From Candidatus Latescibacterota bacterium (GTDB lineage: Bacteria > Latescibacterota > UBA2968 > UBA8231), in the NCBI GenBank assembly GCA_965219385.1, contig CBDCNM010000001.1, positions 28,976 through 92,975 on the forward strand: a DNA stretch of 64,000 nucleotides, given 5' to 3'. Position numbers and translations under genes: made by a program. Shown here in pieces: positions 1 through 16,048 of the stretch. Numbering within the stretch: position 1 is the stretch's first letter; every line of letters begins with the position of its first letter. The notes under the pieces are model-generated. The model was not told where the DNA came from, did not search any database, and was given only the letters and a program-made list of their open reading frames with translations.

Positions 1-2397
1 GGGTACTGGTTGGGCGGCAGCGGTCAGACGGAAGCCCTGTCAGCCGCATCCGGCGACGAGGGCCACTTGAAGAATGCGGATGGTTCGTGGAAATACACCA
101 ACGCCCTCGTCCACGAGACCAGCCCGTACCTGCTGCTGCACGCCCACAACCCGGTGGAGTGGTATCCCTGGGGACCCGAAGCCTTGGAGCGGGCCCGCCG
201 AGAGGACAAGCCCATTTTCCTGTCGGTAGGGTACTCCACCTGCTACTGGTGCCACGTCATGGAGCGGAAGGTCTTCGCCAATCCGCAGATCGCCGCCTTG
301 ATGAACCAGTGGTTCGTCAACATCAAGGTAGACCGGGAGGAACGGCCGGATCTGGATCAGATCTACATGACCGCCACCCGGCTGTTGAATCGCGGCCATG
401 GCGGCTGGCCCAATTCGGTCTTCATGAATCCGGACTTACAGCCCTTCTTCGCCGGCACCTATTTCCCACCCGAGGACGCCCACGGCCGTCCCGGCTTTCC
501 CCGCTTGCTGCAGGTGCTGCACCAGGCATGGCAGAAGCGCCGCGACGAGGTGGAAGAAAGCGCCGCCCAGATAACCGCGGCGATCCGCGAGGAGGTGGCG
601 AGCCGGCGGCAGACGCCGGCCATGGCGCCGGATACCGTACTGGTGAACCGGTCCCTCGCAGCTGTAAAGGGCCGCTACGACGCCTACTACGGCGGGTTTG
701 GGGGGGCTCCCAAATTTCCTCCCTGCATACGGTTGGAGTTTTTGCTGGGCACCTGGGAAAGAGAAAAGGACGAATCTTCTCTGAAGATGGTAGCCCACAC
801 CCTGGTTGCCATGGCCCGCGGCGGAATATACGACCAGGTGGGAGGAGGGTTTCACCGCTACGCCACCGATGCCCAGTGGCAAATCCCTCACTTCGAAAAA
901 ATGCTCTACAACCAGGCGCATCTAGCGCATCTGTACCTGAGTGTGTATCGGGCCACGGGAGAAGAAGCCTGGAGGTGGGTGGCCGAGGATATCTTCCGGT
1001 TTGTAGCTCGCGAGATGACGGATGCGGACGGAGGCTTCTATTCGGCCCTGGACGCCGAGACCGAAGCGGTGGAGGGCAAGTACTACCTGTGGACCGAAGA
1101 GGCCATTTCCGAAATCCTGGGCGACGAAGCCGTGTTGTTTTTCGAGGTTTACGATCTGGTCGCCATGCCCGAGGGAGAAGGCATGGTGCTCTTCGTGCCC
1201 AGGTCGCTGGAAGAAGTCGCCGTGGACCTGGAGATGGCGCTGCCGGCCCTGCGGAGCCGGGTAGAGGGGTTGCGCGCCCGTCTGCTGAAGCAGCGCTCGA
1301 CGCGCCTGTACCCCCTGCTGGACGATAAGATCCTGACTTCCTGGAACGGCATGATGATCGCTTCCTACGCCCTTGGCTACGAGGTCCTCAAGGAGGAGTC
1401 CTACCGCCGAACAGCCGAGGCTGCTGCCGAATTTGTGCTCGAACGCATGCGCACGGCGGATGGGGGATTGAAGCGGTTGTACCGTCATGGCGCCGTCAAG
1501 TACGAAGGCTACCTGGAGGACTATGCCTTTTTCGCTCAGGGCCTGCTGAGCCTGTACCGCGCCACGGGCGACGAGCGCTGGCTGCGGGAGGGACGGGCCA
1601 TCGTCGACCAGATGGTCTTGCGGTTCTGGGACGGGGAAGACGACGGATTTTTCTTTACCGAGAGCGGAACCGACCTGATCGTGCGCATCAAGGACGCCCA
1701 GGACTCGGCCCTGCCGGGGGCGAATGCGGTGGCCGTGCACAGCCTGCTCGACCTGGTTCAGTGGACCGGAGAGATGGCCTATCTGGACCGGGCGCGCCAG
1801 ACCCTGCATGCCTTTGGCAGCATGATGCAGGGCAGCCCCAGCGCCTTCACCCATCTGGTTGCCGCGGCGAGGAAGTACCTGGAGATTGCGGCGCTACGGC
1901 CGGTTGCCGTGGGCTTGCCGGCCATGCCCGCAGCCCTCCAGGGGAAGGCCCCGCTGATTCCCGCAGTGCTGTTGCGGACCCGGGTGGACCTCTCGGTGGA
2001 CAGGCCGGCGCCCGGTCAGGACTTTCAGGTCGCGGTCCATCTCGATATCAGCAAAGGCTGGCACATAAACGCCAACCCCTCTTCCAGCGAGATGCTGATT
2101 CCCACCTCTTTGACTTTGAATGCGGATCTGCCGCTCGAGGTCCTCGAGATCGACTATCCCGGGGCCACCGCTTTCTACTCTGCCGCTCTGGACGAGACCT
2201 TGAAGGTGTACCAGGACCGGGTTACCTTGCGGGCAGGGGTGCGGCTGAAGCCGGAGGCCGCGATGGGCCAGCAGGGCCGGCTGAATCTGCTTTTGCAGTA
2301 CCAAGCCTGCGACGACACCCGGTGCCTGCCGCCGGCCGAAGTGCTGGAAACGATTGATCTGGAAGTGGCGTCCGCAGGGGTTGCAGGGGGACGTTAG
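1..2397 (+). CDS. Thioredoxin-domain protein of the DUF255/YyaL (SSP411-like) family with a C-terminal DsbD-N-like domain; 5' end probably runs off the window
   Basis: Frame 1 is open from nt 1 (track ORF 10..2397 begins at TTG). Motifs [20 protein letters not shown] and [13 protein letters not shown] (DUF255 thioredoxin-like CxxC). Long central alpha-helical region. C-terminal GWHINANP...[13 protein letters not shown] resembles the DsbD N-terminal domain. Confidence 0.8.
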
Positions 2398-3425
2398 TTC
2401 AACTGCCCGCCGCAGGAACTGCCGGCACCGGCAGTGCAGCCGTAGCAGTGATCAGCCAGGGCGATGGGGCCTTGGTTGAACCCTTGCAACGAGGCGATGT
2501 CCCAGATCGTCCTCTGGGTTGAGGCCACGGGGATTTCCAGCATCTGATTGAAATCGCAGTCGTAGAGCCGTCCATCCCAGCCGATCGAGATGAGATCCCG
2601 GCACATCACATCGTCCAGATTGTGGACATTGAAGCTGTTTACCAGGAGCGTCATGTACTCCTCCAGCGCCTCCATGTGTTTGAGGTCGTAGAGGAAGCGC
2701 TTGATCGGCATGTTGGTAATGGTGAAGAGGTGGTTGAACTCGATGCCAAAATCCTCCCGAAGGCGTTCGTGGTAGTCGCCTTCAAGCTCTTGCTGGTCGG
2801 GTGGCAGGGAGGGGCCCACCGGGTTGTAGACCAAGTTGAGGATCCGGCCGCTGTCCGCTTTGCCGTATCCCAGAGCGTTGAGTAGTTGGAGGGCGCGAAT
2901 ACTCTGGTCGAATACCCCCTGACCGCGCTGTTTTTCCACGTTTTCCCTTGAGTAACAGGGCATGGAGGCCATGACCTCGATGGAGTTTTGAGCGAGGAAC
3001 TGGGCGGTGTCCTCCTGGCCGGGCTGGAACAGGACGGTGAGGTTGCAGCGATCGATGACCCGCAGGTCTCGCTGGCGAGCCCGGGTGGCCAGGTAGCGGA
3101 AGTGGGGATTGAGCTCGGGGGCGCCGCCGGTTATATCCATGGTCTCGAGGTCCTCGGATCCGGGCATATCCATGAGTCCCACGATGCGTTCGGCGGTTTC
3201 CCGGGTCATGATTTCGCGGCGCCGGGGACCGGCTTCGACGTGGCAGTGGCGGCAGGTCTGGTTGCACAGCTTGCCCACGTTGACCTGCAGGGTGCGCAGG
3301 GTGCGCCGCGTCAGGGAGAGGTTGTGTTCGGTCAGGGTGCGGGCAAAAGGGACCCAGTTGCCAACCAGGGCATCCTTGTCCGGCTTTTGGTCTACTGAGA
3401 TGACCAGGGGCAGGGTATCGTTCAT
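2394..3425 (-). CDS. Radical SAM/Cys-rich domain protein (ArsS-like family)
   Basis: CNQTCRHCH radical-SAM CxxxCxxC motif; C-terminal Cys-rich tail [15 protein letters not shown]. The track ORF starts at TTG 3491, but ATG 3425 is preceded by AAGGAAG about 5 nt upstream. Its stop codon overlaps the stop of the convergent gene 1..2397. Confidence 0.75.
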
Positions 3426-7466: not shown

Positions 7467-10013
7467 TTAGACTTCTTCTCCCATCCCCGCTTCCCGCAAA
7501 GCCCCCAGCAGGCAGGGCACTCCGAAGAATAGCAGGCTCACGTACATGGGGCTCAGGCCCACGGACCCTCTGCGTTTGGGATCGTCGCTCCAGTCCTGAA
7601 GGGCAATCAGGTGCTGCAGGACGGCGCGGCCAACCTTTAGGTAGCGCGGGTTTTTTCGCAGCCGGTAGGCGTGGGCCAGGTGGCGACATACAATGCCGCC
7701 GTAGCTGTGCTGGATGGCCGTCTCTGCGTCAAAGTTCTGGCCGCAGAACCAGTCCACTGCCCTGCAGTAGACCGTGGCCACGTCCGCCCGCCCCGTCATC
7801 CGGTGCAGCAGTTCCAGGCCGATCATCAGGTAGTGCGTCTGGTAGCCTTTCTGTTCCGATGCCGGCAACACCCGAATAAGCGGGGCGTCCTCTCCCCGCA
7901 GCCTCAGGTGTTCCTGGTCGGTAAAGGGAGGAGCCGTGCCCATTTCCACGGCCAGGGTGGTGCCCTCGGTCGCCATCCCGTAGGGCGCCTGATCGGGCAG
8001 CCGGTCCGGGGTTGAAATCTGGAAGCGCTTGTGCCAGCTGCCGTCTTCGTTCTGCCCCCGGGCAATCGCGTCGTAGACCTCCTCGGCGCGCTTTTTGAAG
8101 CGCTCTTCGCCGCTCATCTCGTAGACGTAGAGCAGGCCGCGCAGGGTATTGGCAATGCTTCGCAGGCTGAAACTATAGGTCGGGTCCTCGGTCCAGCGAT
8201 AGCGCAGGAAAAAGCCGCCGGTCTCGCGCAGTACTTCGGCGGTGCGCAAATCGCCGGTCAAGTAGTAGTAGTCCATCCAGTTGTCCACAAAGGTGTGCGA
8301 GGCGCACGGCTCATCCCCGTAGTGGTCGACGCTGTGGCGAAAACAACCACCCACCATGTAGGGACGGAAGGGATGGAAATGGCAGGTATCCACGTCCATG
8401 GAGTGTCGGGTCATGGCTTCCCCCAGGCGGAAATAGCGATCTTCTCCCGTGCGCAGGTAGTGTATCCAGACCCCGTGGCGAGGGTCCCATTCACTGTTGC
8501 ACCAGCCCCAGCGGCCGTAAAAACGCCAGTTGTTGCGGGCTTCTTCCCAGGCCACCAGCATATCTCCCCAGTCGAAAAACCCGTACCACCCGCCCAGCTG
8601 TATGCTGCGTTCCACCCAATCCAGAAAACCCCGCATCATGCGCTCCGAAGCGGGAAAGGTCTCGGGGTCGAGCGGTGCAAATCCGCCCGTCACGTCGCAC
8701 CGGGCGGTCCAGGCCGGGTCCACAGATACATGGGGAAAAGCCAGCAATCCGCGCAGGACGTCCGTGGTTTCCGCATCCTGGTCGGACCGGTAGAAAGAGA
8801 TGAAAAATTCGCTGGTCTTGGCCGTACCCGCACCATCCGCGTACACCCCTTCCCCCTCGCCCCACGACACCTCTTCGCTGTAGCGCCTAAAGTTCAGCCG
8901 CCCGCCGTCCGGGTCGCGCCACAGATAAACATCGATGCCCCGTCCGCTGCCCGAGGTCCCCAGGGCCTTGGGGTACTCCTCGGCCATGGCGCGCAGCGCG
9001 ACCCCTACGCCGGCCCGGTCGTTCTCCAGCGCCATCCAGCCCGCGGTGCGCTCGCCCTCAGCCGTGGTCTTTTTCCGACCGGCCGTCCGGCGTTCCAGGC
9101 GAAAGTGGTTGACCTGGCGCTGGGACAGCAGCAGGTAGTCGTCCGCAGCCAGGGAGCCCTCTTCGGAGCGGACCGATGAGACGCGGTAGCGCAGGGGGCC
9201 CTCCAGTGCCGCCGGCACCTGCACGGCGATCTCTTCTACTTCGGTCTGGCGCGGGTTGCAGGCCACGACCACCGTGGGCAGGACCCGCACAAAAGGCTGG
9301 CCGGCATAGGCGTAGAGGCGCACGATGTAGCGGAAGGGCCGGTAGCCTGAATAGTGGTGCATGGGCACATCGGCCTCAAAACTTCCCGCACAGCGGATCA
9401 CCGCCCGCAGGGGACCGGACTCTTCCACCTCTACCCGATAGTCGTCCTCTGCCAGCGAGGCCAGACAATCGCCGCCCATGCCGTAGATCTGCCGTCGACC
9501 TTCCTGGGTGGAGAAGGATTCGCAGATTCTGATCCATGCTTCGCCGCCTTTTCCCGGGGGAACTATTTCGCACTCGGCGACAAAACCACCGTCTTGCTCC
9601 AGTCGGCCCAGTTCGACGGATTCGACCAGGCCGAAGCGCCGCCGGTCAATTGAGAAACGCAGCGGGCCGCTGCACACAGTGATGTACTGGTCGTCTTCCT
9701 CAATCTGTAGTCCAGGCCCTCCTTCAATGTCCTTGCTCTCTCCTCCATAACGCAGATTGTACACGGCTGTCCCACCTGCCGGCACATCCGCCTGAAAATC
9801 GGTCAGTACCCACTTCGTGCTTCCGTCGGGCCAGTAGCTCAATACCCGCAACTGGGATGCTACGGGCTCGCCCTGGGGATCCGCCACCCACACTGTATCC
9901 AGGTTTTGCAGCTCGCTTTCGGGCAGAGGCACACCCCGGGTAATGGGCCAGCGCCGACGGGAGATGCCCTGACTTTCCGTTACTCTGAGTTCAACTTTTT
10001 GCCCCTCTGCCAT
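7467..10013 (-). CDS. Large (848 aa) uncharacterised protein, possibly PcRGLX-like (exo-rhamnogalacturonan-lyase-like: beta-barrel N-terminus plus alpha/alpha-toroid C-terminus)
   Basis: Long uninterrupted ORF. ATG at 10013 (MAEGQKVEL...) is preferred over the alternative-codon start at 10157. N-terminal RRRWPITRGVPLPE...WPDGSTKWVLTDF and central WGWCNSEWDPRHGVWIHYLRTG recall that family from memory only. No signal peptide seen. Confidence 0.6.
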   Translation of the reverse strand: MAEGQKVELRVTESQGISRRRWPITRGVPLPESELQNLDTVWVADPQGEPVASQLRVLSYWPDGSTKWVLTDFQADVPAGGTAVYNLRYGGESKDIEGGPGLQIEEDDQYITVCSGPLRFSIDRRRFGLVESVELGRLEQDGGFVAECEIVPPGKGGEAWIRICESFSTQEGRRQIYGMGGDCLASLAEDDYRVEVEESGPLRAVIRCAGSFEADVPMHHYSGYRPFRYIVRLYAYAGQPFVRVLPTVVVACNPRQTEVEEIAVQVPAALEGPLRYRVSSVRSEEGSLAADDYLLLSQRQVNHFRLERRTAGRKKTTAEGERTAGWMALENDRAGVGVALRAMAEEYPKALGTSGSGRGIDVYLWRDPDGGRLNFRRYSEEVSWGEGEGVYADGAGTAKTSEFFISFYRSDQDAETTDVLRGLLAFPHVSVDPAWTARCDVTGGFAPLDPETFPASERMMRGFLDWVERSIQLGGWYGFFDWGDMLVAWEEARNNWRFYGRWGWCNSEWDPRHGVWIHYLRTGEDRYFRLGEAMTRHSMDVDTCHFHPFRPYMVGGCFRHSVDHYGDEPCASHTFVDNWMDYYYLTGDLRTAEVLRETGGFFLRYRWTEDPTYSFSLRSIANTLRGLLYVYEMSGEERFKKRAEEVYDAIARGQNEDGSWHKRFQISTPDRLPDQAPYGMATEGTTLAVEMGTAPPFTDQEHLRLRGEDAPLIRVLPASEQKGYQTHYLMIGLELLHRMTGRADVATVYCRAVDWFCGQNFDAETAIQHSYGGIVCRHLAHAYRLRKNPRYLKVGRAVLQHLIALQDWSDDPKRRGSVGLSPMYVSLLFFGVPCLLGALREAGMGEEV

Positions 10014-10050
10014 TATTTCATTTGTTCCTGATGGATTCCAAGAAGGTTTC

Positions 10051-10791
10051 TTAAGGATATTTGAGGAAACCCGTATTCGGGTGCTTTGCCTTCCAGTTGT
10101 TCCAGCGGGTGTGGATGGATTCGAATTCCGGCAGTTTCCGGTCGGCGTAGAAACCACTGATGCAGGTCAGACCGGTGTCGCCTGGCAGGTGGTACCACAG
10201 GCTTTCTGTCTCGTAGTCGAAGAGCACAAAGGTGTAGTTGTAGGTCCATCCACTGGCGCTCAGGGTCAGAATCTTGCCATTGATCTCGCGACTGTACACG
10301 GCAGTCAGGTTGGCCAGTGGTCAGAAGGCCACGGCTACGTGCGTCTCCCCGAAGACCTCGTTGGCGACTTCGTGCCAGGTCAAGGCACTATCCCAGGTGG
10401 GATAGGCGCGGATGAAACCGCTCAGGCTGACCCCCAGCACCGGAAAATCACTGGAATCGGACGGATAGTTCGGATGGCCCGGGGACAGCATCTGGGGATT
10501 CACGATAGGCTGGATGGCGTAGGGACCCAGGCCGAACTGGTACCCGGATGGAACCAGACCGTACCTCAGGGCATGGGTCACGTCCCAGGACTTGCCGGTG
10601 CGGTCAGTGATGATGGCCCGTCCACCTTTCTCAGCGTAGCTGTCCGTCCCCTGGTTGTCGTTCCCATAGTTCCTCTGGCTGCCCTCCTCATAGTAGCGGG
10701 AAGGGGTGTTGTAAATGCTGTCGCCGCTGCAACCACTCGAAAGCAGGCCGGCGAGACAGCCGAAAAGCGCGAGCAAGAGTGCGTGTATCAT
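10051..10791 (-). CDS. DUF3179-family lipoprotein with in-frame TGA (10321..10323) at the conserved Cys position; candidate selenoprotein (paralogue A, 246 aa)
   Basis: Track ORFs 10321..10791 and 10051..10299 share one frame and are separated only by a TGA. The joined product aligns along its length with the DUF3179 core of 12087..13547 (AYP, WHEVAN, VAVAF-U-PLANL vs VTL-C-PLTG, VLFDYETESLWY vs VMYDRRNDRTLY). Lipoprotein-type signal MIHALLLALFGCLAGLLSSGC. SD-like AGAGG lies 7 nt upstream of the ATG. Confidence 0.7.
10290..10306 (-). promoter_or_regulatory. Candidate bacterial SECIS hairpin for paralogue A
   Basis: mRNA GACUG-CCGUGUA-CAGUC starts 14 nt after the UGA. It has a 5-bp stem and a 7-nt loop containing GU. 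The same structure occurs in paralogue B with an A-U to G-C compensatory change. Confidence 0.5.
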
Positions 10792-10815
10792 ATGCTTGCC
10801 TCTACGGAGGAGAGG

Positions 10816-11631
10816 TTAGAAGCGCATCAGGTTCGGGTAGAGCATGAACTTGGTCTGGGGATGTTCCTGGCGCCACTGCTGCCAGCTCGCTCGCTTGGAG
10901 CGGAATTCCGGCAGGTGGCGGTCCCTGTGCGGACCGGAAATCCCGGTGAGTCCTCTGGTCCCGGGCAGGGGGTACCACAGGGTACCGGTCTCCTGGTCAT
11001 AGAGCACAAAGGTCTGGCGGTAGGTCCACCCGCTCGGCGCCAGGGTCAGGGTCTGTCCATCCAGTTCGCGGCTGTACACGGCAGCCAGGTCCACCAGGGG
11101 TCAGTAGGCCACGGCGAACGGGGTCTCGCCGATGGTCTCGTTGACGATCTCGTGGCGTGCCAGCGGGCGAATGGGGTAGCTGCGCACATCGCCTTCGATC
11201 TCGGTGCCGATGACCGGGATGGTGTCCCAGGCCCCCGGATAGGCGGGCTCGCCGGGGGCGATCATCTCGGGATGGTCGAGGGGACGCATGGCGTTCTTGC
11301 CGATGCCGTACTCGAACCCGTGGCGGCTCATGCCGTAGTTTTGGACCGCATGGGTGATATCGAAACGCTCACCGCGGCGATCGGTGATGTAGATGCGCTC
11401 GGAGCCTTGCCGGCTTTCCCCGGCGGCCGCCCGGGTATCCATGGCCGGTGGCATTGGGGCGCAAGCGACAAACACAGTCAGTAGAGGCCAGGCAAAGGAT
11501 CTAAGAAGCCATCTCAAAACCCCCGGCGGCCGTCGCCCGGCTGCAAAGGCGGAGGCCGGCATTGCCCAAAAGCAGCCATACCCCGGCGATCTAAGAAGCC
11601 TTCTAAAAAAATCGAAGCGCATGGGGAACAT
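10816..11631 (-). CDS. DUF3179-family lipoprotein with in-frame TGA (11101..11103) at the conserved Cys position; candidate selenoprotein (paralogue B)
   Basis: Track ORFs 11101..11631 and 10816..11094 share one frame and are separated only by a TGA (FAVAY-U-PLVDLAAVYSRE). Homologous to paralogue A throughout. The start is uncertain: ATG 11631, 11622 or 11562, or TTG 11517. TTG 11517 would give a classic lipoprotein signal, MRWLLRSFAWPLLTVFVAC. Confidence 0.65.
11070..11086 (-). promoter_or_regulatory. Candidate bacterial SECIS hairpin for paralogue B
   Basis: mRNA GGCUG-CCGUGUA-CAGCC starts 14 nt after the UGA. The loop is identical to paralogue A; the second stem pair is G-C instead of A-U. 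Confidence 0.5.
11502..11514. promoter_or_regulatory. Palindromic motif site a (TAAGAAGCCATCT)
   Basis: One mismatch to the core AGAAGSCTTCT. Part of the 22-nt near-duplicate GATCTAAGAAGCCWTCTMAAAA, repeated exactly 90 nt away. Confidence 0.5.
11592..11605. promoter_or_regulatory. Palindromic motif site b (TAAGAAGCCTTCTA)
   Basis: Exact core, in the 5' region of DUF3179 paralogue B. Confidence 0.5.
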
Positions 11632-11715
11632 TCTCCTGTCTACCTACTAATATAAGAAACATGAAACATGTACAAAATCACCATTATCAGTACCTTGATG
11701 AACCCACGTGAAGAA

Positions 11716-11884
11716 CATGCCGGGATCAAGGTCGGAAGGGGATGTTGCCGGGGGCGTTTTGTGGGGGGGTAGTGGCCGGGAATAGACTAAGGAGGCCGGC
11801 CGATCTTTGGGGTGGCACCTGAGGCGAGCCCGACAACCAGAGAAAGGTCGCTCAACCATCTGGGACTCATAAAACGCCAGAGGC
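11716..11884 (-). repeat. Intergenic repeat family, copy 1 (about 169 bp, full length)
   Basis: Read on the minus strand it begins GCCTCTGGCGTTTTATGAGTCCCAGATGG and ends ...CCCACAAAACGCCCCCGGCAACATCCCC...GGCATG. Both ends match copy 3, and 105 bp matches copy 2 nearly base for base. Contains the internal 8-nt complement GGCGTTTT/AAAACGCC. Confidence 0.7.
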
Positions 11885-12086: not shown

Positions 12087-13547
12087 GTGAAGCACAAAAC
12101 CATCTTTGTCGGATTGATCCTGGGACTGGCGGTCAGCCAGGTCCAGGCCGGGGTTTTCGACCAGTTCGAAGATATCGAAGTCCTGATAAAAATGCACATG
12201 CTCTCGGGCGGCCCGGGGAAAGATGGGATCCCGGCCATGACCAACCCCGAGTTCGTGGATCCGGACCAGGTCGAATACGTGCGGGACGACGAGTTGGTGA
12301 TGGGGGTCTACATGCATGGAGAGGTCAAGGCCTATCCGGAGAATCTGGGCTGGTGGCACGAAATCGTCAACGACCAGATCGGCGACCAGTTCATCTCGGT
12401 CACCCTGTGTCCGCTCACCGGTACCGGCATGGTCTTCAATGCCACGGACGCGGACGGCAGCCAGATCGAATTCGGGGTGTCGGGTTTTCTGATCAACACC
12501 AACCTGGTGATGTACGACCGCCGCAACGACCGGACCCTTTACCCCCAGATGATCTACACCGGCCTCAACGACGATTTCAAGAACCAACAGCTGGAGTTGC
12601 TGCCGGTGGTGGAGACCACCTGGGGGATGTGGAAGCAGATGTACCCCGAAACCAAGGTGGCCCAGTTCGGGACGGGCCTGGAGCGCTACTCCGAGCGGAA
12701 ACAGCAGAGTTACCTCGATGTTGATCGCTTCCGCAGTTATCCCTATGGAAACTACCGGACCGACAACAACAACCTGTTTTTATATGCCCGGCCTACTTCC
12801 TCTATGGATCTGAGAACCCTCGAAGTCAAGGATGTGGTGCTGGGGTTGTGCCAGAACGACCAGCTCAAAGCCTACCCCTTCCCGGATATGCCGGACGGGG
12901 CCGTGATCAACGACGAACTGGGGGGCGTGCCCCTGCTGGTGGTCTTCGAGCGGGAGGCGTCCCTGGCCATACCCTTTTATCGCGAGGTGGACGGCCAGGT
13001 ATTGACCTTCTACGAGGTTGAGCCCGAGGGGAATCTGCCGGTGGAGTTCATGGACGCGGAGACCCGCTCGCGCTGGAATTTGCGCGGCGAGGCCGTCTCC
13101 GGTCCGCTGGCGGGCCAGCGCCTGCGGCAGATGCCGGGCTACAATTCGATGTGGTTCGCCTGGGCCACCTACTGGCCTGAAACCGACTTGTGGACCTTTG
13201 GAGAAGGCATCATCGAACCACCGCCCACGACCGTAGAGGAAGAGGATATCGCCGCCCTGCCGGAGCACTTCGTCCTGAGCCAGAACTATCCGAACCCCTT
13301 CAATCCGACCACCCACATCCAGTACGCCCTGCCGCAGGACGGCCTGGTGCGTCTGAGCGTGTACAATGCGGCCGGCCAGAAGATCCGCACCCTGGTGGAC
13401 GGGTATCGGGCCCAAGGGCTCTACCTGCAGGACTGGGACGGTCGCGATGAAAGCGGGGCCCAGGTGTCCAGTGGCACCTACCTCTACCGTCTGGAAATGC
13501 CCGAACAGGGGCTGTGTCAGACCCGGAGTATGACCCTGATGCGCTAG
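12087..13547 (+). CDS. DUF3179 domain protein (Cys form) with signal peptide and T9SS type-A C-terminal sorting domain
   Basis: GTG 12087 is preceded by AGGAG (12073..12077). Signal VKHKTIFVGLILGLAVSQVQA. DUF3179 core GGPGKDGIPAMTNPEF, AYPENLGWWHEIVND, VTLCPLTGTG, VMYDRRNDRTLYPQ. C-terminal NYPNPFNPTTHIQYALP...VYNAAGQKIRTL...GTYLYRLEM matches the Por secretion tail. Confidence 0.85.
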   Translation: MKHKTIFVGLILGLAVSQVQAGVFDQFEDIEVLIKMHMLSGGPGKDGIPAMTNPEFVDPDQVEYVRDDELVMGVYMHGEVKAYPENLGWWHEIVNDQIGDQFISVTLCPLTGTGMVFNATDADGSQIEFGVSGFLINTNLVMYDRRNDRTLYPQMIYTGLNDDFKNQQLELLPVVETTWGMWKQMYPETKVAQFGTGLERYSERKQQSYLDVDRFRSYPYGNYRTDNNNLFLYARPTSSMDLRTLEVKDVVLGLCQNDQLKAYPFPDMPDGAVINDELGGVPLLVVFEREASLAIPFYREVDGQVLTFYEVEPEGNLPVEFMDAETRSRWNLRGEAVSGPLAGQRLRQMPGYNSMWFAWATYWPETDLWTFGEGIIEPPPTTVEEEDIAALPEHFVLSQNYPNPFNPTTHIQYALPQDGLVRLSVYNAAGQKIRTLVDGYRAQGLYLQDWDGRDESGAQVSSGTYLYRLEMPEQGLCQTRSMTLMR

Positions 13548-13669: not shown

Positions 13670-16048
13670 ATGCTGAATTTCATTGGCCAATACACCAAAT
13701 GGCTCCACACCCGGTGGCCGGCCGGCGTGGTGGAGAAGCTGCCTCAGGTCGACGAAAACGGCCGCAGCAATATCCCAGGGCTCTATATCGTCGGCGACCT
13801 GACCGGGATTCCCCTGCTCAAGTTTTCCTCGGATTCGGGGGCGCGGGCCGTGCAGCACATCGCCGCCGACCAGGATTTTCACCGCCTGCGCCAGGCGCAG
13901 GCGGACGAGGATATCCTCGACGTGGCCGTTGTCGGCGCCGGAGTCTCGGGCATGGCCGCGGCCCTGGCGGCCCGCAGCGCCGGGCTTTCCTTCGAGATTA
14001 TCGAGGCCACCGAACCCTTTTCCACGGTGGTCAATTTTCCCAGGGGCAAACCCATCTACACCTACCCGACCGAAATGCTACCGGCGGGCGATCTGCAGTT
14101 CACCGCCGAGGTCAAAGAGCCCCTGGTCGAAGAACTCAGAGCCCAGACCCTGGAACAGGGCATCGAGCCGCGTATGGCCCGCGTCGAACAGGTGCAGCGG
14201 CGGGGAGACCTCTTCGAACTGGTGATTCCGGGCCAGGAAAATTTGCGGGCCCGGCGGGTGATTGTGGGCATTGGCCGCTCGGGCAACTTTCGCAAACTGG
14301 GGGTCCCTGGCGAAGACCTAGACAAGGTCTACAACCGCCTGCACGACCCCAAAGATTACGGCGACAGAAAGGCACTGGTGGTGGGCGGCGGCGACAGCGC
14401 CCTGGAGACGGCCATTGCCATTGCCCTGGCCGGAGGGCAGGTCACCTTGTCCTACCGCAAGCCGGAATTTGCCCGTCCCAAGCCGGAGAACATCGAAAAG
14501 CTCGACCAGTTGGCGGCGGATCCTATGGCCGACGTAGCGGTCGAAACGCCCACCTCCGAACGGGTGACCACCTCCAGCGGCCACTTCCTGGAAGAGGGCC
14601 GCAAGGCCGGCAGCATCCGCCTGATGATGGGCAGCACGGTCCAGCGCATCGAGGCAGAGGAAGTGGTGATCAAGGATGCCCAAGGCGAGGAGGTCCGCCT
14701 GCCCAACGACGCGGTCTTCAGCATGATCGGACGCGAGGCTCCACTCGATTTCTTTCGCCGCGGCGGGGTTGCGATCAGGGGAGAAATGAGCGGCAAACAG
14801 TGGGTCGGACTGGCGCTGTTCGTGGCTTTTTGCGCCTTTGTGTACAACTGGAAGGCCGGAGGGCAACTCACCCAGGTCTTTGAGCAGAACGGGTGGTTTC
14901 CCTACCAGATCCCCGCTCTGCTCAAAGGACTCGGGACCGGACTGTCGGCCCGGGCGGCGGAGCCTTCTACCTTTGTGGGCACCCTGATCCTCAATCTTGG
15001 ACAACCCGGGTTCTACTACAGCCTGGTCTACTCGCTGCTGGTGGCCGTCTTCGGGTACCGCCGCATCCGGCGCCGCCAAACCCCCTATATCAGGGCGCAG
15101 ACTCTGTGCCTGACCGCGGTGCAGATTCTGCCCCTCTTTCTGCTGCCCTACCTGATTTTGCCTTACCTAGGGTACAACGGCTTTTTCGACGCTGGTTTTG
15201 CCCGGAGCGTTGCAGATGCGCTTTTCCCCCAGGTAGACTACGGCCACGGCCGCGAGTACTGGCGCGCCTTCGGTCTCGTCTTGGCTTGGCCGCTGTTTAT
15301 CTGGAACGTGTTCACCTACCAGCCCCTGTGGTGGTGGCTGGGGATCAGCCTGGTGCAGACCGTTGTGCTCATCCCCCTGATCATCTATTTCTGGGGCAAG
15401 GGGTCCTATTGCGGCTGGATCTGCTCCTGCGGCGCCCTGGCCGAGACGCTGGGGGATCAGCACCGCCACAAGATGCCCCACGGGGCCTCCTGGAACAAGG
15501 TGAACATGGTGGGGCAGGTCATCCTGGGGTTGTGCGTGGTACTGCTGATTGGCCGGATTTTCAGCTGGGTATGGCCCGATACCGGCGCCGGCGGAATGTT
15601 GCGCGGCCTGTACGAAGGGCTGCTCTACGACTGGAAACCCTTCGGGATACAGCTCAATTACAAGTGGGTCGTAGACCTTTTTCTGGCCGGTATTATCGGG
15701 TACGGGGCCTATTTCTGGTTCAGCGGCCGGGTCTGGTGCCGCTTTGCCTGTCCCCTGGCCGCGCTGATGCACATCTATGCCCGCTTCAGCCGCTTCCGCA
15801 TCCTGGCCGATAAGAAGAAGTGCATTTCCTGCAATGTGTGCACCTCGGTCTGCCACCAGGGGATCGACATCATGAACTTTGCCAATAAGGGGTTGCCCAT
15901 GGCCGACCCGCAGTGCGTGCGCTGCAGCGCCTGCGTGGAATCGTGTCCCACGGGCGTGCTCGAATTCGGCCAGGTCAATCCGGGTAGTGGCCAGGTTTTG
16001 AAACGGGACGGGCTGGCGGCCTCGCTGGTGCGCCAGCACGAGGCTTGA
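13670..16048 (+). CDS. Fusion protein: FAD/NAD(P)-binding pyridine-nucleotide oxidoreductase domain plus NapH/NosR-like polytopic membrane 4Fe-4S (polyferredoxin) domain
   Basis: DVAVVGAGVSGMAAALAA and LVVGGGDSALE dinucleotide-binding motifs. Hydrophobic segments follow, with CGWICSCGALAE and WCRFACPLAAL (NapH-type CxxCP motifs). C-terminal ferredoxin motifs CISCNVCTSVC and CVRCSACVESCP. GAGGA RBS lies before ATG 13670. Confidence 0.8.
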   Translation: MLNFIGQYTKWLHTRWPAGVVEKLPQVDENGRSNIPGLYIVGDLTGIPLLKFSSDSGARAVQHIAADQDFHRLRQAQADEDILDVAVVGAGVSGMAAALAARSAGLSFEIIEATEPFSTVVNFPRGKPIYTYPTEMLPAGDLQFTAEVKEPLVEELRAQTLEQGIEPRMARVEQVQRRGDLFELVIPGQENLRARRVIVGIGRSGNFRKLGVPGEDLDKVYNRLHDPKDYGDRKALVVGGGDSALETAIAIALAGGQVTLSYRKPEFARPKPENIEKLDQLAADPMADVAVETPTSERVTTSSGHFLEEGRKAGSIRLMMGSTVQRIEAEEVVIKDAQGEEVRLPNDAVFSMIGREAPLDFFRRGGVAIRGEMSGKQWVGLALFVAFCAFVYNWKAGGQLTQVFEQNGWFPYQIPALLKGLGTGLSARAAEPSTFVGTLILNLGQPGFYYSLVYSLLVAVFGYRRIRRRQTPYIRAQTLCLTAVQILPLFLLPYLILPYLGYNGFFDAGFARSVADALFPQVDYGHGREYWRAFGLVLAWPLFIWNVFTYQPLWWWLGISLVQTVVLIPLIIYFWGKGSYCGWICSCGALAETLGDQHRHKMPHGASWNKVNMVGQVILGLCVVLLIGRIFSWVWPDTGAGGMLRGLYEGLLYDWKPFGIQLNYKWVVDLFLAGIIGYGAYFWFSGRVWCRFACPLAALMHIYARFSRFRILADKKKCISCNVCTSVCHQGIDIMNFANKGLPMADPQCVRCSACVESCPTGVLEFGQVNPGSGQVLKRDGLAASLVRQHEA

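Follow-up and report, generated by a model that had tools for sequence, protein, structure and literature searches.

Why do two neighbouring genes of one protein family each break off at a TGA, and at the same place in the protein? The two genes (hereafter, genes A and B) lie side by side on the minus strand of a 64,000-nucleotide stretch of DNA from a Candidatus Latescibacterota bacterium (contig CBDCNM010000001.1, positions 28,976 to 92,975; hereafter, the window), and both belong to the DUF3179 family. An initial annotation of the window had called them candidate selenoproteins. We find that the UGA codons of A and B are very probably recoded as selenocysteine (Sec), and the early proposal is supported by a conserved column that holds either TGA or Cys, by a reading frame that stays open downstream of the TGA, and by a covarying hairpin that accompanies the TGA.

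TGA codons at the conserved cysteine of DUF3179

The genes, their UGA codons and a nearby paralogue are located as follows.

10051..10791, minus strand: gene A, a DUF3179 gene of 246 codons (counting the TGA) with a single in-frame UGA, encoding a putative single-module lipoprotein
10816..11631, minus strand: gene B, a DUF3179 gene of 271 codons (from ATG 11631) with a single in-frame UGA, encoding a putative single-module lipoprotein
10321..10323, minus strand: UGA of gene A, predicted Sec codon, at the conserved Cys column of DUF3179 (context AVAF-U-PLANLTAVYSRE)
11101..11103, minus strand: UGA of gene B, predicted Sec codon, at the conserved Cys column of DUF3179 (context AVAY-U-PLVDLAAVYSRE)
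12087..13547, plus strand: gene C, a long-form (two-module) DUF3179 gene and Cys paralogue of A and B, with Cys codon TGT 12408..12410 at the Sec column

Gene A consists of the open reading frames (ORFs) 10791..10324 and 10299..10051, and gene B of the ORFs 11631..11104 and 11094..10816. The two ORFs of each gene share one frame and are separated solely by the TGA (10323..10321 in A, 11103..11101 in B), which bears out the layout, coordinates and codon counts first annotated. The genes are co-directional, with A beginning 24 nt past the stop of B, and they probably form a tandem pair in one operon. A GAGG motif lies 7 nt 5' of the ATG of gene A. The true start of gene B is uncertain, with ATG 11631, ATG 11622 and TTG 11517 as candidates, and its 5' end carries a 22-nt direct repeat (11498-11519 and 11588-11609, 91% identical, 90 nt apart) that doubles an RRLLRS/RWLLRS segment. 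By pattern, the signal peptides end in lipobox-like sequences, ...LLSSGC in A and ...TVFVAC in B. Neither downstream part has its own start codon or ribosome-binding site; as the initial annotation had noted, what reads as the first Met of a downstream ORF is in fact Val, encoded by GTG within a conserved peptide.

Read through the TGA, gene A matched the Pfam profile PF11376 (DUF3179) with an E value of 9e-31 and 107.8 bits, and gene B with an E value of 2e-34 and 119.7 bits (cut-off 27). The family membership claimed at the outset thus stands. The accompanying claim of a full-length match to the DUF3179 core does not, as A and B cover profile positions 7-148 of 292 only, which correspond to the first module of a homologous pair. 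Each of the TGAs aligns with the Cys of the CPLT motif in gene C, where the initial annotation had placed it.

To survey this column in other genomes, we used a species-level scan (one genome per species, queried with A and B aligned to a metagenomic homologue) that yielded 74 loci. Close relatives (41-62% identity) were present in about 46 of these, from metagenome-assembled genomes labelled Latescibacterota, KSB1, Calditrichota/Calditrichia, Krumholzibacteriia and Gemmatimonadetes, together with a few of doubtful label. A TGA occupied the aligned column in 59 homologous short-form genes, which come from loci of 38-68% GC and at least five phylum-level groups. These genes have 79-260 open codons before the TGA and at least 87 after it (87-104 in all but two, median 89), and none contains a second in-frame stop. 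Some genomes carry two or three copies, in tandem or at separate loci, every one with the TGA. Orthologues of the A type (53-62% identical) were found in more than 40 loci, and B-type orthologues with TGA in seven (L003, L006, L010, L039, L041, L043 and L044); because both lineages have the TGA, it is older than the split of the A and B paralogues.

The roughly 89 codons after the TGA are the best-conserved part of the protein (SASGWTY, FVLYDxETxSLWY and GLTCISG), and they remain open in loci of 38-41% GC. A few short forms have Cys in place of the TGA (L017:7251, L042, L080, L081 and L001:1336; about 10 database clusters altogether), as do nearly all long-form DUF3179 proteins, gene C included. 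The tabulation of Cys and TGA in relatives that the initial annotation had called for therefore gives one conserved column, with 59 TGA genes and a Cys minority and no scattered stops.

Predicted proteins in public databases point the same way. An exhaustive HMMER search with the N-terminal half of A against 1.84 billion cluster representatives (50% identity) returned 293 clusters. Among the best 150 of these, about 135 predicted proteins stop exactly one residue before the column (...VAY), implying a TGA, and two to four run on with Cys. Four public proteins (P0156, P0157, P0162 and P0185) show Trp at the Sec column; for P0156 (locus L079:40-768) the DNA has TGA, which the gene caller had read as Trp under another code. 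A further clade of short forms has Arg (CGC) at the column in the context VVH-R-PLLG (L082:6001-6735, proteins P0167-P0182), and the Arg-form gene of L082 adjoins ZnuA/ABC-3, ArsP_1 and YceI genes.

A hairpin downstream of the TGA

The sequence that follows the TGA can fold into a small hairpin resembling a selenocysteine insertion sequence (SECIS).

10289..10307, minus strand: SECIS-like hairpin of gene A, UGACUG C-CGUGU-A CAGUCG, -5.5 kcal/mol
11069..11087, minus strand: SECIS-like hairpin of gene B, UGGCUG C-CGUGU-A CAGCCG, -7.6 kcal/mol

The hairpin begins 13 nt past the UGA and is built of six standard pairs (6-7 bp), a C.A apposition and the loop CGUGU. The segment YUG RCU GCC GUG UAC AGY CG occurs downstream of every TGA, and RNAalifold returned a single consensus helix, at the hairpin, with a consensus folding term of -6.97. 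An A-U pair in gene A is replaced by a G-C pair at the same position in gene B, a compensatory change. In an alignment of 47 sequences this pair (28:42) was G-C in 29, A-U in 15 and G-U in three, with no mismatch; with L048 and further sites included (60 sequences), the counts were 39, 17 and four, again with no mismatch. In the larger alignment, four of the seven pairs had changed on both sides, a result matched by none of 500 shuffles and by no slid register. The loop CGUGU was invariant, and the apical loop lay 19-20 nt from the UGA in each of the 60 sequences, which showed no insertions or deletions. A covarying hairpin is thus present at A, at B and in their TGA relatives, in answer to the check for a SECIS after each TGA that the initial annotation had suggested.

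Codon usage also indicates a constraint on the RNA. Third-codon-position entropy was 0-0.15 bit over the five codons that span the 5' arm and the loop. It rose to 0.96 bit at the 3'-arm Ser codon, which covaries with column 28, and to 1.4-2.0 bit in the flanking four-fold codons. The divergent member L048 (44% identity), whose peptide reads RVIVYDR, forms GGUCAU-CGUGU-AUGACC at the identical distance. Four intact Cys forms (L017, L042, L080 and L081) encode a near-identical peptide, L[T/V]AVY[S/D]R, and have no hairpin, the helix being broken by their codons (TTA/CTC, ACG/ACC/GTA, GCT/GCA/GCG, GTA/GTT and TAT). The Arg form of L082 likewise has none. Because the hairpin is kept in the TGA forms and missing from the Cys and Arg forms, the constraint on the RNA is tied to the TGA, as expected for a SECIS. 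Separately, about 16 codons are deleted and the frame is shifted in a Cys (TGT) paralogue at L001:1336-1380, the neighbour of a TGA paralogue; decay to a pseudogene or a fault in the assembly would explain this, and the deletion takes out exactly the stretch that forms the hairpin in the TGA forms.

The published model of the bacterial SECIS (bSECIS; quoted in PMC13188914) specifies a loop of 3-9 nt with a G within its first two positions, an upper stem of 4-16 bp, a UGA-to-loop distance of 16-37 nt and an energy of at most -7.5 kcal/mol. The loop of 5 nt (7 nt if the C.A apposition is left unpaired), the six-pair stem and the spacing of 19-20 nt all fit the size rules. The rule on the loop G fits when the loop is read as CGUGU, a reading that holds for three members (L048, L036 and L045) with a U-A pair at 32:38, the position of the apposition.

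Protein architecture and the reading of the UGA

Gene C is transcribed divergently from A and B and encodes a signal peptide and a C-terminal sorting domain of the type IX secretion system (T9SS) type; the arrangement of A/B with gene C also occurs in Latescibacterota loci L006 and L010. The N-terminal and C-terminal halves of gene C match each other (BLASTP E 2e-5), and a profile of the short forms matches its C-terminal half with 98% hhalign probability. The homology of the two halves, together with the match of the short form, indicates that DUF3179 arose by internal duplication and that A and B are single-module proteins. The duplicated module is about 140 aa long, and in gene C the HE[IV]xNE and Cys motifs are kept in the first module only. 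In the short forms a conserved GKxWD[VI]THA...FGLGP element precedes the single module. Under a strict pattern, 105 of 126 complete homologues have a lipobox-like N-terminus (a hydrophobic stretch, then [GAS]-C), and most of the others have a Cys after the hydrophobic stretch. From these N-termini and the T9SS sorting domain of gene C, the family as found here is predicted to act outside the cytoplasm.

A natural Cys short form (P0158, from an 18-sequence alignment) was modelled with AlphaFold2; the model is all-beta, with a predicted local distance difference test (pLDDT) score of 87 and a predicted template modelling (pTM) score of 0.79. The Cys is placed in a turn between two strands, and the parts before and after the column fold as one domain. 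Foldseek retrieved no significant neighbour of the model in the PDB (best E 0.087, TM 0.13), and a sequence comparison of gene C with the PDB gave a match limited to its FlgD-like immunoglobulin-type tail, with no relative for the DUF3179 part. Nor is the short form covered by any NCBIfam model. A likeness to the Rieske-type fold was weak, partial and not significant, and an L,D-transpeptidase-like His...Cys spacing was dropped, as no structural match stood behind it.

Several observations weigh against reading the UGA codons as Sec. Under strict pairing the loop becomes CCGUGUA, which places the G at position 3 and not at 1-2, and the hairpin is weak, at -5.5 (A) and -7.6 kcal/mol (B) against the bSECIS limit of -7.5. 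A scan of 9900..11800 against Rfam gave no family match (E <= 10). No tRNA-Sec, selA, selB or selD was found within the window or the fetched loci; the tRNA scans covered the window and 46 loci, and a tblastn search of the window and all loci with an approximate E. coli SelD query gave no match and is uninformative, covering about 0.6 Mb. The Arg clade indicates that the fold can persist with neither Cys nor Sec at the column. The family has no established function, and the AlphaFold2 model has no PDB neighbour. The literature found on the family reports no experimental selenium incorporation for any DUF3179 protein, and literature searches on Sec use in Latescibacteria or Caldithrix, and on DUF3179 function, turned up nothing relevant.

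Part of this evidence would also suit a recoding that does not involve Sec, in which the codon is read by a tRNA for Trp, Cys, Arg or Gly (a near-cognate or a suppressor), or UGA is a sense codon in the lineage, and the hairpin stimulates read-through. The missing Sec machinery in the window and fetched loci, the small hairpin with its borderline bSECIS energy and the Arg clade at the Sec/Cys column all speak for it. We nevertheless give it a slim chance. TGA terminates many conserved genes of the window, the homologues have Cys at the column in the classical Sec/Cys pattern, the G-U of the loop is typical of a SECIS bound by SelB and stands at a permitted distance, and DUF3179 is already classed as a selenoprotein family. 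A reassigned genetic code, which the initial annotation had judged unlikely from the normal use of TGA as a stop, is excluded: about 20 of the roughly 48 coding ORFs in the window end in TGA, and each case checked is followed by an ordinary gene. Examples are trigger factor ahead of clpP, hisH ahead of hisF and a racemase-like gene ahead of an M20 peptidase gene; the same three pairs had been considered as further read-through candidates and were rejected as ordinary adjacent genes with their own starts.

UGA recoding is never fully efficient, and gene callers and NCBI list the halves of these genes as separate proteins. Both facts would agree with normal termination at the UGA, which would leave functional N-terminal fragments of 156 and 176 aa and make the hairpin and downstream frame regulatory, or the source of a rare extended isoform. 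This is very improbable given that the best-conserved part of the protein lies after the TGA and is open in 59 of 59 genes, those of low GC included, that it has no start or ribosome-binding site of its own, that the Cys forms encode both parts as one protein, and that the AlphaFold2 model folds both parts into one domain. As for a chance stop shared by two paralogues in decay, or sequencing and assembly errors, nothing favours them except the stop codons themselves and the damaged Cys paralogue at L001:1336. The probability left to them is negligible, and the comparative data refute them. The TGA is found in three independent assemblies of the organism and in the 59 genes of many phyla, none with a further stop, and purifying selection acts strongly on both halves. 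The joint conservation of the TGA column, the hairpin and the open downstream frame excludes decay, in line with the early remark that a stop shared by two paralogues fits decay poorly. An assembly error at the TGAs is excluded by an independent assembly (L077, a 5.73-Mb contig, 99.6-99.9% identical) and by Logan contig L078, which repeat the identical split genes. L077 also carries a 973-bp insertion sequence (L077:8183-9155, with DUF4096 and DDE_Tnp_1 ORFs) 5 bp upstream of the first ATG of gene B; it is absent from the window (site 11636-11647), and the roughly 12 nt matched on both sides of it may be a target-site duplication.

We therefore retain recoding as Sec and propose the following model. 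The UGA of A and B would be read as selenocysteine in place of the invariant Cys of the family, with the hairpin serving as a bacterial SECIS that recruits SelB with Sec-tRNA(Sec) and the genome supplying selA, selB, selC and selD. The products would be exported lipoproteins of about 230-270 aa, each with a short N-terminal beta module and one DUF3179 module of about 140 aa, in which the HE[IV]xNE motif would be followed by a strand and then by the turn that holds the Sec. Its selenol may act as a nucleophilic or redox-active residue outside the cytoplasm, where Sec would be less prone than Cys to irreversible oxidation. For the chemistry of the residue, binding of a metal or metalloid is a less favoured alternative. 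The single-module proteins may pair as homodimers or as A/B heterodimers, mimicking the two-module long form.

Gene neighbourhood and known systems

The operon in the window runs on into a gene for an 848-aa PcRGLX/GH127-like protein. Beyond gene C lies a fusion gene, given as context only:

13670..16048, plus strand: TrxR/YpdA-like flavoprotein fused to a NapH/MauN-like membrane 4Fe-4S protein, 792 aa

Homologues of this fusion occur near DUF3179 genes in L004, L017, L041 and L044, from three phyla, and the two may be functionally linked. Further neighbours in the window are a DsbD_N/thioredoxin-like protein, a Cys-form ArsS, VIT1 and RND efflux genes. The ArsS gene (2394-3425, minus strand) matches TIGR04167, arsenosugar biosynthesis radical SAM (seleno)protein ArsS, with 438 bits; it ends in TAA and, because no TGA interrupts it, is a non-Sec form of a family prone to selenoproteins. 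Across loci the commonest neighbour is a protein of about 300 aa with a signal peptide and a barrel-like C-terminus, found in 19 of 46 loci and in L001 (for example, L004:6685-7617, L008:6860-7789 on the minus strand and L001:1867-2769 on the minus strand). It belongs to no Pfam or NCBIfam family and has no copy in the 64-kb window. Its frequency beside the DUF3179 genes, and its likeness to outer-membrane barrels, would suggest a selenol system of the cell envelope.

The initial annotation had known of no earlier description of Sec-containing DUF3179 proteins, with a caveat, and this was mistaken. Two selenoproteome reviews (Zhang et al. 2022, PMC9312934; PMC13188914, 2026) list Sec-containing DUF3179 (PF11376) with one Sec in the motif UxxC/T, citing MBW1804167.1 and MDJ0986319.1 as example proteins, and both credit it to the work of Zhang & Gladyshev (2007, PMC1976440) on Olavius symbionts. 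Judging by table order, it is probably the 'OS_HP1' of the Olavius delta-1 symbiont in that study. The family and the position of its Sec are thus already catalogued, and no new category is opened here. Our tentative suggestion is that the predicted single-module DUF3179 lipoproteins make up a separate clade, as yet without an explicit description, that is ancient and overwhelmingly Sec-containing, with at least 290 clusters (50% identity) in Latescibacterota, KSB1, Calditrichota, Krumholzibacteriota and Gemmatimonadota, with TGA in both the A and B types, with a minimal SECIS of its own that fixes the peptide L[A/T]AVYSR, and with genes split by gene calling. Set apart by U-P-L-[V/A], the minimal SECIS and the split gene calls, this short-form clade may not have been singled out before. 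One NCBI record annotated as 'DUF3179 domain-containing protein' (136 aa) is such a gene cut at the Sec codon.

With public gene calls halving these genes, hundreds of envelope selenoproteins in phyla of the Fibrobacterota-Chlorobiota-Bacteroidota (FCB) type would be invisible in protein databases. The clade would also offer a clean natural example of a minimal bacterial SECIS at or beyond the bSECIS limits, which could help to tune Sec-gene finders. A key residue that is extracytoplasmic and favoured by selenium would narrow the search for the function of DUF3179, and the presence of up to three or more copies per genome implies heavy use of the Sec trait in these candidate phyla.

Like the published Sec-DUF3179 proteins, A and B belong to PF11376, have one predicted Sec at the conserved Cys and have Cys homologues, and are predicted from Cys/TGA homology and a hairpin. 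They differ from the published motif UxxC/T in reading U-P-L-A (A) and U-P-L-V (B), with V, A or I at +3 across the subfamily, and in being predicted single-module lipoproteins from candidate phyla of the FCB type; here the published family is represented by its description and not by its example sequences. TGA genes of Chloroflexota/Dehalococcoidia (L065:1165, L069:2677, L070:1123 and L072:6112) group with the long forms. Like A and B, they have the TGA at the same column, after ...LLITY and in an HEIVNE...Y-U-PL context, whereas their U-PLC-GSG fits the published UxxC type and their hairpin, GCUCAGGC-GUU-GCCUUUGAGC with a GUU loop, is unrelated. The Cys long forms (gene C and the CPLC/CPLT proteins of Alphaproteobacteria and others) share the homologous module and the HE[IV]xNE...[YF]-C-PL pattern, and differ in having two modules and Cys for Sec; gene C also has the T9SS domain instead of a lipobox.

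Among other exported selenoproteins, the DsbA-like, DsbG-like and thiol:disulfide interchange proteins (PMC1976440) resemble A and B in their extracytoplasmic location and in having one Sec for a reactive Cys. They differ from A and B, which lack the thioredoxin fold (the AlphaFold2 model being all-beta) and a CxxC-type partner at +3. Compared with a canonical bacterial SECIS of the E. coli fdhF type, the hairpin of A and B likewise lies in the coding sequence just past the UGA and has a loop with G-U. It departs from that type in its stem of 6 bp, in the C.A apposition by the loop in most members, in an energy at or above -7.5 kcal/mol, and in a sequence that hardly varies between phyla, owing to its overlap with the conserved peptide L[A/T]AVYSR.

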